Shown: piece by piece, positions 1,467-63,277 of the stretch
How the letters are laid out: each line of letters starts with the position of its first letter
How positions within the stretch are numbered: position 1 is the first letter of the stretch
NCBI GenBank assembly: GCA_964016885.1
Contig: OZ024751.1
Location: forward strand, 38,068,001-38,132,000
Length of the DNA stretch: 64,000 bases
From: Eledone cirrhosa
Lineage: Eukaryota
Direction of reading: 5' to 3'
The notes under the pieces: model-generated
Databases searched by the model: none
What the model was told of the DNA's origin: nothing
Seen by the model: only the letters and a program-made list of their open reading frames with translations
Made by a program: the position numbers and the translations under genes

Positions 1467-1683
1467 TAGAAGTGGTTACACAACAGTTAGTTCACCATAC
1501 TGAGAACAATTGTTTCACCTTAGCGGAACCTCAGCTCGTAATACACGAGCTGAGGATCCGCTACGGTGAAACAATTGTTCTCGGTATGTTGAACTAACTG
1601 TTGTGTAACCACTTCTACCTAACTCGTCCCATGGACTGAGTGCTCTACCACTACGGATATTACCTTCCAGTGTTCTACCACTA
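1467..1683 (+). mobile_element. TA-embedded fold-back hammerhead element, family D
   Basis: 151-bp near-perfect palindrome 1467-1617 (loop AATAC 1540-1544) plus a unique 3' tail 1618-1683; (TA)n on both sides. Confidence 0.88.
1546..1583 (+). ncRNA. Minimal type I hammerhead ribozyme
   Basis: cgag CTGAGGA t ccg cta cgg t GAA ACAATTGT T ctcg; all core nucleotides present, palindromic stem III, GUU triplet (predicted cut after 1579). Confidence 0.9.
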
Positions 1684-4600
1684 TATAAACATATATATAT
1701 ATATATATATATATATATATATATATATATATATATATAGTTAAATAGTGTGTAAGACTATCTTACAATTCTTAACATTTCCTTTGTCGATAGAATCCGA
1801 TTATGCGAGAGTCGCAAATATTACGTTGCCAGATATATCTTAGCGGCTACGAATGGCTGGAAAGCTAATTACAACAAGCATTGTTTTAGAAAACATTGGT
1901 TCTTACCATTTTCCTAACACACGATGTCTCATACATGGCAGAGCAATCATTTTAGTAGATTCATAACTCTCTCTCTCTCTCTTTATATATATATATATAT
2001 ATATATATACATATATATATATATACATATATAAGCGCGTGTGTATATTTACATACATATGGACACACACATACACAAACATATATTCATACTGACTTGC
2101 TGAAGTCAGAGATTTTCCTACGAATATAAAATCCGTGCAGGAAGAAAGAAGAGACGACAACAACAACAACGACAATAACAACAAGGGCGACAATAACAAC
2201 GGCAACTGTGATGCGATGTGATAGCGTGAAGTTGAAGTGATCAATAATACGCTTATGTATTGATACACTAGGTCAAGAGAAATAATTTGATTGTTAATAT
2301 CATCTTGTGTAAGCTTAGCCAATATTTTCATAACTCTTTGTTAGCATTATAACTTTTCAATTAGTCACCTTGAGACTCTGTTAATCGCACACTTGTATCA
2401 AGAATATTTCAGCACCCGATCTCATTTGTAATTCCATTACAATTTACTGATAAATATAACCGTAAAATTAGTGTACTCTATACGAGGCTACAAGACAATA
2501 GTAAATAAGTCACGTCACTGTCATAAACTCCTAATAAAAAGAAAGAAATATAGAAAACTAGCAGAAATATCGCACATGTTTCTACTAGTCTCTCTCTCTC
2601 TCTCTTATATATATATATATATATATATATATATATATATATATATATATATATATATATATACACGTGCCTGTGTTTGCGTGTGAATTTGTGACTATTT
2701 AGCTTCCCTTTTTGCTACAAATATTAGGAATCTACTCACTATTGGTACTCCTGCTCAATCTTATACTATATATATATGCATATATGCATACATACATAAG
2801 TTCTTACATATATACATACGTATATACATACATACATGTATGCATGTTTACATAAATAACTATATACACACACGCATACTTACATGCAAACCTCTTAAAA
2901 TATCACGAATTCACAGCCGAACAACTTTAACGTTCACTATAGTAACAAGCACATTTATTTAACTCCTAATAAAAAGAAAACGCTTCATAACTTCATATCT
3001 ATATTGTACAAACAAACAAACAAAAAAAATATCTATATATATATATATATATATTTCACTACTGTTATATATTTCCTTCTATATGAATATTAATGTTTCA
3101 AACGGTGCGATGAACAATATTTCGACTAATTATAGAACTTCTACACCACATATAATTTTTTTTTTATCTGAAGTGAAGTACTGTGGAAAAAATTACTGGT
3201 TATATATATATCGAGAGAGAGAAATCTGTTTTATATATACATTATATATATATATATATATGTTATACCCATATTTATGTGTGTGTTTATATCTTATATA
3301 AACACATACATATTTGTACAAGATATATGTTATTTTTTATACACATAAAGCCCATGTTAAATACTAATCCGTTTATGAATATATGCATATAATTACAGCT
3401 GTTTGTTTTCTTGTGAGATGGGACATGTGTTTCACTGTTTAGCTTATAAGTGTATTTAACCATTCCCATCTACAGCGCATTAAGGCTCTGCAATACATCT
3501 TTGAAGTGTAGCTCTGGCTTCTATGGCTTTATGTGGCTATTACCATCCTTTCAATAGTACCAATTAATTTACACACACCTACACACAAATATATAGATAA
3601 ACATATATATATAGAGAGAGAAAGAGAGAGGCATACATACTCACACAATTCTCTCTCCCTTATATATATATAAATATATATACATACGTATCTGTATACA
3701 TACATACATACATACATACATACATACATATATATATATATATATATATTTATATATATATACATACAGATTCGTATATATATATATATATATATATGTA
3801 TACATACACATTCATATATATATATATATATATATATATATATATATATATGTAAATCTGTTTGTTTATTGCAATATTTTTTGTTAATGTTAATGCTTAC
3901 TATGTATTGTACAGTTTAAGAGGAGGAATATATTCTAGACTTATTATAAAAAATAAAAAAAATAAGAAGAAAGCATGGCATGTTTATCATAATTGCTTCC
4001 CCTTTATCGTTGCGGGCAATTGCAAATGGGATTATTGAAGAATGCGTCCTTAAGGGAATATTAATAGTCGCAGTGGTAGTTATAACAATGATGATTATGA
4101 TGATAGTGATAATAACAATTATAAATATAATAACAATAATAATAATATCAACAATAATAATATCAACAATAATATTATCAACATATGTTGAGGATAAAAC
4201 AAATATCGAATAATACCACCCAACACCAATTTGTCAGCAGATAGTATCCTTTTGAGCACGTTGAGGAATTTATCAAATATTTAAATGGAATTTTACCAGC
4301 ACAAAACAAAATCAATTTATAAAGAATATGTGAAAGGAAAACTAAAAAGTAAATCTACCTTGAAAGGGGAAAAATATGTCTCGGTAGATCCATGAATATT
4401 AACTGATAAAAGGGGCTAAGAACAACAATAACAATATCAAGAACAAAATGAAAATCAAAGGCTTTAGAAGCAACAAAAAAGGAACATTCTCAGAAATGGC
4501 AAAAAAAAAAAATGTAAATAAATAAGTAAAATAAAAATTCGCAAAAATATATAAAGAAGCAGCCGCCATTAGTAGCCACACCACCACCAACAACACTAAA

Positions 4601-7484
4601 AAAAAACAATACCAACTCCAAAATAACAAGATTAACAATAACATTCACAAGATCTCGTTTCTTTCGAGAGCAATAGCGATAACAAACGTGTACACTAATT
4701 AAGCATAACCAGCAGACAATCACATAACGTCCCTTTTAAGTAGGCCTCCTTTGTTCTTGCTTTGCGTATACTCCTTATACATTTTGTATATAAAGAATAT
4801 ATATGTATATATTGTAATTATTATTGTTATTGTGTAGATTGATGTGAAGAGAGAATAAGGCTGGAGTGAAAAAATACTTTCTTGGCGTTATAAAGCGTGT
4901 TCTCTCTCTCTCTCTCTCTCTCTCTCTCTCTCTCTCTCTCTCTCTCTCTATATATATATATATATATATATATATATATATATATATATATATAATCTGA
5001 TATAATTGTACATATTAACATATTTAAGGTGAAGTGGTGAGTGGGAGTAGCAGTTTATGGCTGCCGTGAAAATGATGTATTTACAATTCCCGTGCGTTAT
5101 TATGTGCCTATCGTAAATAAGCAGCCTGTTTTAATGAATTGCAAGGCTATATTGTCGTCTTTTGATATATTTGTTTCAATTCAGTTGTGACGATGTAGAC
5201 TTAATGACATACAAACGTACACATGTAGGCTCACCCACACTTACCACACGTATATATTTAAATATATGTACATATATATTGGTATAGGTAAGGTGGGGTA
5301 CGTTTGCTTTGTACTTTAGCATGAATATTGCAAACAAGTTTTAAGTAGTGTGCATTTTTTAAATGCGGAAATTGTAGTAAAAATAATTATAATAATATAA
5401 CATGAAACAATCTAAATGCATTAGTCAACATACGCCATTAACGTTGAAATCATGTTTCTAAAAAGGAAAATTAAAAGAAAAATGGTTACGCATATTAAAT
5501 AAGGATGGTAAATTTGAAATGGTATAGAAAATATGACATGAAAATCGAGAGAATATAAATAAAATAAGGCATGAGTCATTAAAATATAGAAATTATTTCA
5601 ATCTATGTTACTGCTGGAGAACACATACTTTTGCTACTGGTATTGTACTTTACTAGAAGTTTTCAAAGTACACGTATTTCAACCCATGAAAGTAAAAGCA
5701 CTGGAAATCTAATTCATATTCTATGGCAGCAACAACATTTTAAATAAAAGACAGGAGCGAAAATGGGTTGTTTGGGCTCAGCTTGAAGTCATCCCTGATA
5801 AGGCAAACAGAGGGTGAGAGGGAGAAATTAAGAGAGTAAGAGAGATAGTAAGAGAGGGTGATAAAGAATAAGAGTGAGGTAGAGATAAAAAAAACAGAAA
5901 TTTCTAGAAATTTCAGAGAAAGTAATACAGAAATGATTAATAATTCATTAATCAATTCATCAAATTCAAAGCAAATCAAGACACAGTCTGTTTAATCAAC
6001 ACAAGGTTTCACTTACAGTAAATAATTCTCTTTTTACTCCCAATCCTGCCCCATTTCCCTTCTCTTTCTTTCCTTTGTTCACATTCGAGCCTTCATTCAG
6101 TTTATTTGTCCTTTTTTCTATTATGTCATTCATCAACTTGTCTCACTCAAATTTCAAATGAAATTTTCCTCTTAATTTTCATCTAATTTTACTTTTATTT
6201 ATGCATATATACACACACACAGACACAGATATACAAAAACATACATACACACATACACATATAAACACGTACACACATACATACATGAAGACAGACACAC
6301 ATATATGTATATATGTATGCTTATATGTATGAATGCGTGTGTGAGTGTGAAAATATGTGTATGTGTGGATACGTATGTTATATGTGCAGGTTTGTCCACA
6401 TATGTGTTCAAGTGTATTCTGTCTGTAGTTACATGTCAAAACGTTTATATACTAAGCTGACACATTTTGCATTTTACCATTTTACCAATTCCTCTTGAGA
6501 GATTATCTGGAATTGACAGGACAATATATGGATCCATTTTTAATACCACAGATTAAAAGGCAGCTGAAGTATTCTTGCTTCTTGATTCTATTTATCTCGC
6601 CATCCCCTCTCTTCTTCCCAGCGGTTTACTATTGCTAAAGTCTTGCTATTCTGACTAACGTTTTGGCTCTGACAGGTGACTATGCCATTGGCTAAGCTTT
6701 GTACAATTTATTAATTACGGAAAAATTCTATATATGCATCCTGCATATATACACTTGTGTAAATACGCAATTGATATATATATATATATATATATATATA
6801 TATATATATATATATATATATATATATATATATATATATATGTATGTATGTATATATATAGAGAGAGAGATGTGTATGACTATCCTTTAATCTCTTTCTT
6901 TACACACAGACACACACAAACACACACACACATATATATATATATATATATATATATATATATATATATATATATATATATATATATATATATACAATTA
7001 CACACAAACATCTACGCACACATATACATGTATACATAACATTGTCTGCCCTCTGTTGTTGCTGCTATGTAAGCTAAGGGAAATTAAGTATCACGTGGTA
7101 TTGGAATAGAGACGATTAATCAAAGTTCATCAATAGGAGTTCAATATACCATCCTGACCAAAATAAATGATAAATTTTTAAGCAATCCTTTAAATACTCA
7201 TTAATAAAATAACACACACCCATACATACATACATACATACATGCATACACACATACATATACACACGTATATATATATATACGTTTATATAGATGTAAG
7301 ATTCTCTAATGTGTACCACACACACGCACACATATATGTATGTATATATATATCTATATATATATCTATATACATACATACATACATACATACATACATA
7401 CATACATACATACATATATATATATATATATATATATATATATATATATATATATATATATATATATATATATATATATATATA

Positions 7485-62891: not shown

Positions 62892-62987
62892 TATATATAT
62901 ATATATATATATATATATATATATATACATATATATATATATATATATATATATATATATATATATATATATATATATATATATATA

Positions 62988-63277
62988 TAATATAAGATCA
63001 AAAGATGGTTAAAGGAGTTCCATGTATTTTATTATGCGCATTTCAAAAACAAACATCATCAAGCAATAATATTTGTGTTTTCATCAGATAAAACAGGAGA
63101 ACATGATATGAAGGGTAAAAAGCACTTGTGGATAGTGCAGTTTTAAATCAACATGGAACTCCTTTAACCATCTTTTGATCTTATATTATGTATACTCCAG
63201 TCCTACAAACTGTAGAGTGCTTCTTATCCGATATCTGCATTGCTTTATTGTACTACAATAAAACTCACCTCCTACAT
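62988..63277. mobile_element. Family E hammerhead element with internal inversion
   Basis: 62988-63154 is collinear with 8378-8544; 63151-63277 is the reverse complement of 8290-8414. Confidence 0.92.
63027..63093 (-). ncRNA. Type I hammerhead ribozyme
   Basis: ttttat CTGATGA aaacacaaatattatt gct tgatgatgtttgttttt GAA ATGCGCAT A ataaaa; intact core. Confidence 0.88.

Follow-up and report, generated by a model that had tools for sequence, protein, structure and literature searches.

Why should one short string, YGAGYRC, recur near the 3' ends of repeat families that otherwise look unrelated? The question is raised by a stretch of 64,000 nucleotides from the 3.0-Gb genome of Eledone cirrhosa (G000:C11:38068001-38132000; hereafter the window), which has 30% G+C and is dense in (TA)n runs. 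The original prediction listed 14 such strings, all of which are in the window, on the strands assigned to them and at most 2 nt from the positions assigned, and read them as a common cis-signal for recognition by the reverse transcriptase (RT)/endonuclease of Penelope-like elements (PLEs) or for the positioning of initiation. The signal is supported here and binding of the protein is inferred, but that proposal overlooked that the motif belongs to a base-paired hairpin, that the hairpin occurs twice, and that element copies end just 5' of each occurrence. We establish that this hairpin, here called the box, covaries, is duplicated in a set order within the leader of Hydra-clade PLEs, lies at a short offset from two kinds of copy end that are coupled in fold-back insertions, and is retained in a non-coding family (family F). 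Sequence comparison suggests that the twice-carried box probably binds the Hydra RT-endonuclease, and that a UA 5-9 nt 5' of the box would serve as the starting point of reverse transcription.

The bulged hairpin

Read on the ribozyme-sense strand, the box has the form RCTC-Y..loop..R-TH-GAGY-RCT, in which RCTC is followed by a short stem with its loop, a bulge that is mostly 2 nt long and opens with T, and then GAGY and RCT. YGAGYRC is a real motif, but it is only the 3' arm of this hairpin, whose 5' arm, RCTC (once GTTC), had gone unnoticed. The whole hairpin is present at 12 of the 14 window sites; the site at 59363 lost its 5' arm through truncation, and a search for a 5' arm at 58408 found none. 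The sites are genuine without being 14 independent cases, since self-comparison of the window sorts them into only 11 families, labelled A-K, with the pairs 8344/63212, 14202/62835 and 7527/62452 each belonging to one family. Further family copies lie at 40351, 62239, 55505, 56918 and 57011. In the features listed here, short arms end just 5' of box 1 and long arms just 5' of box 2, a fold-back insertion joins one end of each kind, and pLTR stands for pseudo-long terminal repeat and ORF for open reading frame.

1469..1690, plus strand: fold-back of family A inserted in (TA)n; the short arm (1469-1538) is inverted and stops just 5' of box 1, and the long arm (1546-1687) is direct and stops just 5' of box 2, with hammerhead core 1550-1572; parent a Hydra ORF
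1622..1641, plus strand: box 1 of family A; ACTC/GAGT lower stem, 1-nt bulge
7485..7666, minus strand: family B fold-back insertion; hammerhead core 7583-7606; parent a Hydra ORF
7529-7547, minus strand: box 1 of family B; GCTC/GAGC, upper stem with one mismatch
8348..8372, minus strand: box 1 of family C; TA bulge; parent ORF traced
14157..14361, minus strand: family D fold-back insertion with long and short arms; box 1 at 14205-14228; parent ORF traced
17927..18139, minus strand: pLTR end of family E with hammerhead core 18072-18113 and box 1 at 17990-18009; parent ORF traced
27722..27755, minus strand: box 1 of family G; GCTC/GAGC; neither parent ORF nor box 2 traced
28171-28308: inverted copy of family G, stopping about 5 nt 5' of box 1
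29053..29133, minus strand: box 1 of family H; 69-nt loop; parent ORF traced
40354..40377, minus strand: box 1 of family D in a tail-only copy (40306-40385)
42751..42895, plus strand: fold-back of family F with box 1 at 42827-42862; its parent is a non-coding tandem unit of 1322 nt
54379..54513, plus strand: family D fold-back; bulge substituted
54583..54782, minus strand: family J fold-back; parent ORF traced
55027..55048, minus strand: box 1 of family K; GTTC/GAAC, a compensatory change in the lower stem
55491..55624, plus strand: family K read-through copy; box 1 at 55491-55512, box 2 at 55604-55624 (TCTC/GAGA)
58408..58418, minus strand: 3' arm alone; neither a 5' arm nor a second copy found in the loci examined
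59334..59378, minus strand: tail of family J, truncated 5'; 59363-59373 is the 3' arm of box 1; full-length copies carry the whole box
62194..62379, minus strand: family D variant fold-back; box 1 at 62242-62265
62412..62619, minus strand: fold-back of family B; box 1 at 62455-62473 and hammerhead core 62516-62539
62676..62889, plus strand: family D fold-back; box 1 at 62818-62841
62990..63275, plus strand: family C insertion whose short arm is inverted; box 1 at 63194-63218

Positional enrichment, which the original prediction expected, is borne out near TA runs against both shuffled and distant sequence. In the window, a (TA)4 run follows YGAGYRC at a distance of 25-70 nt in 10 places, compared with a mean of 1.6 and a maximum of 5 in 100 mononucleotide shuffles that left the TA runs in place, and the full hairpin precedes such runs 15 times (shuffled mean 1.6, maximum 5). 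Held-out DNA (54 pieces of 10 kb, 540 kb in all, three of which adjoin the window) gave YGAGYRC at 23 of 187 GARY sites situated 45-60 nt before a TA run and at 150 of 7600 sites at least 120 nt away; the strict hairpin was found at 24 and 54 of these same sites, respectively. GARY sites in 69 unselected 10-kb loci hold the hairpin in 75 of 1612 cases when they precede a TA run by 30-130 nt, and in 33 of 8195 when they are at least 300 nt away, an enrichment of about 11-fold. The 75 hairpins form 27 clusters, eight of them with at least two members, and a few of the singletons will be chance matches.

Pairing was counted by script in 63 boxes, 49 from metagenome elements and 14 from this genome (the latter with the 5' arm placed by hand); the variable loops defeated alignment with MAFFT. 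Metagenome boxes were chosen by their 3' arm and the nearest upstream RCTC or RCTG, with no further pairing required, and about 20 further families from random loci are left out of the counts. In 58 of the 63 boxes the pair above the bulge is Watson-Crick (C-G 35, T-A 21, G-C 2), compared with 29.5 in shuffles that ignore the relatedness of families; none of 5000 shuffles reaches 58. Metagenome boxes alone give 44 of 49 (shuffled, 22.7). The next two upper pairs form in 40 and 37 boxes (shuffled, 19.1 and 15.6), while the outer pair is G-C in 50, A-T in seven and T-A in one. The bulge reads TT in 39 boxes, TC in 14, TA in six and otherwise in four; its first base is T in 60, the preceding base is a purine in 58, and the T-A pair is present in all 63.

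These counts bear on a rival explanation, in which the motif reflects shared ancestry or chance and has no function. All traced autonomous families do fall in one clade, and single matches do turn up far from TA runs, at the 33 of 8195 GARY sites given above. However, the flanks no longer align (comparison of the leaders of eight families by BLAST gave a single 19-nt match among 28 pairs), whereas the box is kept, with compensatory changes, in this genome, in unrelated metagenome elements and in published consensus sequences, and the box is enriched about 11-fold near TA ends. Together with the copy ends described below, the covariation and enrichment counts largely refute this explanation, to which we give next to no probability.

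The box lies 45-65 nt downstream of a type I hammerhead ribozyme. Readings as a hepatitis delta virus ribozyme, twister, twister-sister or kink-turn were dropped after comparison by eye with the consensus structures. Among the 150 Rfam matches listed of 326, all were TA-repeat artefacts far below gathering scores, and none was a ribozyme or a family covering the box.

Carriers and the leader arrangement

Which elements carry the box? Hydra-type ORFs were traced for seven families (A, B, C, D, E, H, and J), the lead for family A being a locus in which two copies lie with a GIY-YIG-type C terminus just upstream; for families G, I, and K no parent ORF was traced. The element has a single ORF encoding an RT together with a C-terminal GIY-YIG endonuclease, with an intact ORF of 709 amino acids at L275:1847-3976 (minus strand), and the six ORFs of families A, B, C, D, E, and H are 38-55% identical to that of family J over their main matches. 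Near-complete ORFs contain DKT, RWR, CxCX5C and CxxC..E..N..CxH motifs and lack CCHH. SDKT is found at all seven family loci, and D115, K116, and T117 are conserved in at least 90% of 73 proteins; N-terminal R35, R37, and W38 are also conserved, families of this genome reading RWR or RWI, and the two arginines of RxRW are kept in 92-100% of the 73 proteins. The CxCX5C linker occurs in families A, H, J, and B, and the A and J proteins have the CxxC..E..N..CxH residues and lack the cysteine pair between the GIY- and YIG-like strands. The fold modelled for the family J protein (predicted local distance difference test score, pLDDT, 90.9) has TERT as its best match among solved structures. Pfam named none of the ORF fragments, and a search of viral contigs returned no relative.

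Because the motifs of these ORFs are the features published for Hydra PLEs (PMC8557442), we assign the traced box carriers to the Hydra clade, an assignment that rests on the motifs and on the published consensus sequences. Naiad and Nematis, the first guesses for the RT clade, were ruled out by diagnostic motifs. The motif is also present in the pLTRs of autonomous Hydra-clade PLEs, where the original prediction would look for it, and the box itself is genuine and occurs in Hydra elements from several hosts.

The Hydra families are inserted in (TA)n. A predicted ribozyme, called by its hammerhead core sequence, is present in 26 of 30 family A pLTRs and also in families B, C, E, and F; the core of family D deviates in the long copies seen. 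Tandem arrays with units of about 3.54 kb (family D) and 1.32 kb (family F) occur. A 362-amino-acid ORF beside a full-length family A element (L148:927-2015, minus strand) is presumably mariner-transposase-like.

Family F is a non-coding 1322-nt tandem unit that holds a hammerhead and both boxes (L345-L347, G000:C1:130.88 Mb), and a search of it for a Hydra coding remnant found none (best tblastn E value 0.84). It is likely mobilised in trans by Hydra elements. A further non-coding array in the window (23625-27507), with a 311-nt unit, forms a giant fold-back of seven minus-strand and 5.4 plus-strand units; it is retrozyme-like, with a type I hammerhead core in every unit. No canonical box was found in this unit, the two outer ends fall at different points of it, and it may use another signal. 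A 517-nt direct repeat (41585-42736), in which no box was found, has a minus-strand CTGATGA core.

A Neptune-like family, so labelled from its CxxxCxxC linker and further motifs (L118-L147, L031, L152), carries the box in none of 30 pLTR copies, although it bears a hammerhead and is inserted at TA. It has two preferred 3' ends, about 23 and about 83 nt past the start codon (18 and 5 of 29 copies) and so about 60 nt apart, which must be set by a different signal.

Full-length leaders, both in this genome and in unrelated metagenome Hydra elements, follow the order hammerhead, box 1, box 2, ATG. The metagenome set comprised 77 loci with Hydra relatives (about 40% identity), among which 28 leaders have a hammerhead upstream of the ORF start; 24 of these 28 have two boxes and two have one, a third match in two of the 28 being part of the ribozyme. 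After clustering, 15 of 17 leader clusters have two boxes. From these leaders, a second box was predicted to lie just past the long end in the window families. Anchored on that end, pattern searches found it in family D (485 matches, nearly all of those listed being one continuation, with none in the control), family C (278), family E (43) and family F (89), and box 2 was recognised without an anchored pattern in families A, H, J, and K, with long loops in A and H. Two pattern searches for family B gave no repeated complete box 2. The boxes are spaced 68-138 nt apart, and box 2 stands a few tens of nucleotides before the ATG in the leaders inspected.

Copy ends and the proposed mechanism

What does the box position? 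Of 30 family A pLTRs, 29 end immediately 5' of one or other of the two boxes. Eight families were counted in the window and in the 69 unselected loci; of their 118 TA-ended copies, 98 terminate 5-9 nt 5' of a box, compared with 12.3 expected if the TAs of the leader were equally likely ends. This count set aside 32 alignments that lack a TA run at the end or read through, and 99 simple-repeat matches; a wider count of 329 in 386 includes 33 family H simple-repeat artefacts of the reference, two of which are left in the 118. At 95 of these 118 ends, TA is also the sequence of the element itself. Leaving out the box 2 positions of families C, D, E, and F that were found by anchored pattern, a hand count still places 61 of 75 ends at boxes. 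Among metagenome pLTR copies, seven of eight stop matching 0-4 nt 5' of a box, and the eighth reflects divergence between families. The constrained distance is thus the 5-9 nt upstream of the box, not the 30-120 nt downstream to the TA junction that had been singled out; since copies end 5-9 nt 5' of boxes, the latter distance equals the box spacing minus the box length and the offset.

The two ends are also coupled. In unselected DNA, 18 of 22 fold-backs join a short to a long end, none joins short to short or long to long, and four have an unassigned end. Over all genome loci, some of which were selected on the long end, 56 of 75 are short plus long, none joins like with like, and 19 have an unassigned end. 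Two equally used, independent sites would be expected to give about half of the fold-backs as like with like. Most copies extend 5' beyond the ribozyme cleavage site, so the template would be an uncleaved multimeric or circular RNA.

Irregular copies were noted among the insertions. At 56906-57033, two tail-only family A pieces flank (TA)28 in inverted orientation and both begin at the 5' arm of box 1, a geometry opposite to that of the usual fold-back. Elsewhere, a family B chimera has a family-C-like tail (L333), and a short tandem consists of box 1 plus tail (L335); both appear as signs of template switching at the box or at the ends.

If the boxes were instead leader control elements (a translational operator, a cap-independent start used after ribozyme cleavage, or a promoter element), the ends would have to cluster at them through TA microhomology within an AT-rich stretch. 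The nearness of box 2 to the ATG and the AT-rich bases just 5' of the boxes fit this explanation, which we nevertheless regard as very unlikely: even use of TAs would place only about 10% of ends there, both boxes are kept in non-coding family F, and the strict pairing of short with long ends is unexplained by translation control.

Returning to binding by the RT-endonuclease, the following series of steps would account for the ends. The box would act as RNA, and the RT-endonuclease of the element would bind each box. The endonuclease would cut both strands within (TA)n, and each 3' end would anneal to the RNA by TA microhomology and prime about 7 nt 5' of a box, the two ends thus priming at box 1 and box 2 of one RNA, whether by two protomers or in two successive engagements. 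Joining of the two cDNAs at their truncated ends would give a fold-back whose asymmetric overhang is the PLE "tail", equal to the box spacing. A solo copy ending at box 2 is predicted to keep box 1 only, and one ending at box 1 to keep neither; for an entire unit to be followed by both signals, the transcript would have to be tandem or circularised.

A more detailed hypothesis is offered tentatively, as possible rather than probable. It supposes that TAR-like, arginine-binding boxes keep both protomers of a dimeric RT-endonuclease related to telomerase on a single RNA, and that each of them primes from one end of the (TA)n break about 7 nt 5' of its box. Such twin priming would make both the tail and the inverted pLTR, would leave tandem or circular transcripts as the only lasting masters, and would let any two-box RNA insert in trans.

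Several points weigh against the proposed mechanism. The hairpin is weak, being the minimum-energy fold in four of 10 window fragments with no z-score below -1.4; box 2 frequently has a single pair above the bulge; and the 63 boxes include three doubtful automatic calls (L211-1, L219-2, L225-1), while the merging of related families went no further than about 75% identity. The hairpin forms equally well on the sense and antisense strands (0.73 vs. 0.77) and G.U pairs exceed A.C pairs by only 13 to 7, so the counts do not settle between RNA and single-stranded DNA. The short ends of family C scatter from -7 to -14. In family B, three read-through copies have a word resembling the 5' arm and no complete box 2, yet the family has long ends, which are more scattered. 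Finally, the Neptune-like control is one family only.

The main rival, in which the GIY-YIG endonuclease reads the box in DNA, as a cDNA hairpin or an extruded cruciform, and trims or resolves the intermediate at a TA 5-9 nt upstream, would make the ends cut sites rather than priming sites. The likeness of the two strands in folding agrees with it, as does the position of the ends on TA, the target dinucleotide. Craig et al. (PMC8557442) considered endonuclease-mediated resolution the "most likely" source of the tail, and Penelope endonuclease requires the tail in DNA for cleavage, as cited by Frangieh et al. (PMC11167929). However, in the sole reconstituted PLE the two ends coincide with sites where the RT starts on the RNA (PMC11167929), loops of 3-69 nt speak against a duplex-DNA site of fixed spacing, and the ribozyme-sense strand is the one on which the U of the bulge and the 3' RCT are fixed. 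We therefore hold the DNA explanation to be unlikely.

Two other features of the window were noted. A broken ORF of a long interspersed nuclear element (LINE)-type RT occupies two frames at 18944-20935 and has no relation to the box. A dispersed repeat of about 180 nt has six copies (12622-12809, 38261-38434, 50218-50404, 52877-53064, 53964-54152, and 60789-60981); its size resembles that of a short interspersed nuclear element (SINE), and it lacks the bounding by TA typical of PLE ends.

PLE RTs are the sister group of telomerase, and how they choose their RNA and their internal start sites is what is at stake. Twin boxes would explain the PLE tail and the inverted 5' copy or fold-back ends, and a hairpin of about 20 nt at a fixed offset to both ends makes a precise, mutable hypothesis for which intact 709-amino-acid ORFs are at hand. 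The box is also a marker that could assign hammerhead-bearing non-coding repeats (retrozymes) to a helper clade, is useful for setting pLTR boundaries in annotation, and, as a compact cis-signal combined with (TA)n targeting, is of interest for retrotransposon insertion tools.

Comparison with known systems

The class of element and the kind of RT-recognition hairpin are already known, and the twin-box end rule looks new: the full-text literature searched, which stops short of subscription journals, Repbase comments, and figure images, yielded no description of the box, its duplication or the end rule. The Hydra clade of PLEs was described by Craig et al. (2021; PMC8557442), and shares with the elements reported here a C-terminal GIY-YIG domain, DKT, RW(K/R), a CxCX5C linker, and the lack of CCHH, together with a pLTR hammerhead, (TA)n targets, an inverted 5' copy and a tail. 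By eye, boxes or variants of them are present in five of the six published Hydra consensus sequences (File S7 of PMC8557442), with both boxes in Hydra-1_Ajap, box 1 in Hydra-2_Ajap and Hydra-2_Amil, and variants in Hydra-1_Crog and Hydra-1_Obim; the sixth, Hydra-1_Amil, stops before box 1. The published Hydra tail measures 30-40 bp, unlike the box spacing of 68-138 nt found here, and the Hydra section and related passages of that account make no mention of the box, its duplication or a relation to copy ends (PMC8557442).

A mechanistic precedent is the Poseidon element PAc of Anolis, for which both DNA strands are cut and extended, two internal RNA starts delimit the tail, a dimer is predicted, and hammerhead cleavage is dispensable in vitro (Frangieh et al., 2024; PMC11167929). 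The two internal starts and the extension of both strands fit the mechanism proposed for Hydra elements. However, the PAc starts lie inside the ORF, involve an AC-rich stem-loop and use no target homology, and the binding motif was narrowed only to 172 nt (PMC11167929), in contrast to the defined, duplicated hairpin in a non-coding leader and the TA microhomology seen here. The letters of the PAc RNA given in Fig. S1 of that study contain no such box.

At the level of the local structure, the box resembles the arginine sandwich of TAR and 7SK, in which a purine, a bulged U with a spacer base, and G-A-G paired with C-U-C correspond to the box, the matched TAR positions being A22, U23, G26, A27-U38, and G28 (PMC6189040). 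The T-A pair found in all 63 boxes and the conserved RxRW arginines go along with this likeness. Family A has a 1-nt bulge, however, and the C-G pair that replaces U-A in Hydra-1_Crog argues against universality. We treat the apparent resemblance as a lead only. Compared with TAR and 7SK, the arrangement of the box is circularly permuted, with the loop on the other side.

Family F, in turn, resembles the animal non-LTR (long terminal repeat) retrozymes, non-coding tandem units with hammerheads that derive from PLE pLTRs (bioRxiv 10.64898/2026.07.22.740005; PMC4209133). The parts of those papers examined here mention the ribozyme and no further cis-signal for mobilisation. In stringent LINEs (ZfL2, UnaL2), a protein-bound RNA stem-loop licenses target-primed reverse transcription and is retained by non-autonomous partner SINEs, as the box is in family F (PMC4176376, PMC1636434). 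Those LINEs have one stem-loop with a family-specific loop, and priming occurs 3' at the RNA end (PMC4176376, PMC1636434), whereas Hydra elements have two boxes with ends 5' of each, a free loop and a bulged stem conserved across the clade. By analogy, the box likely works as a LINE-type recognition stem-loop does, without being one.

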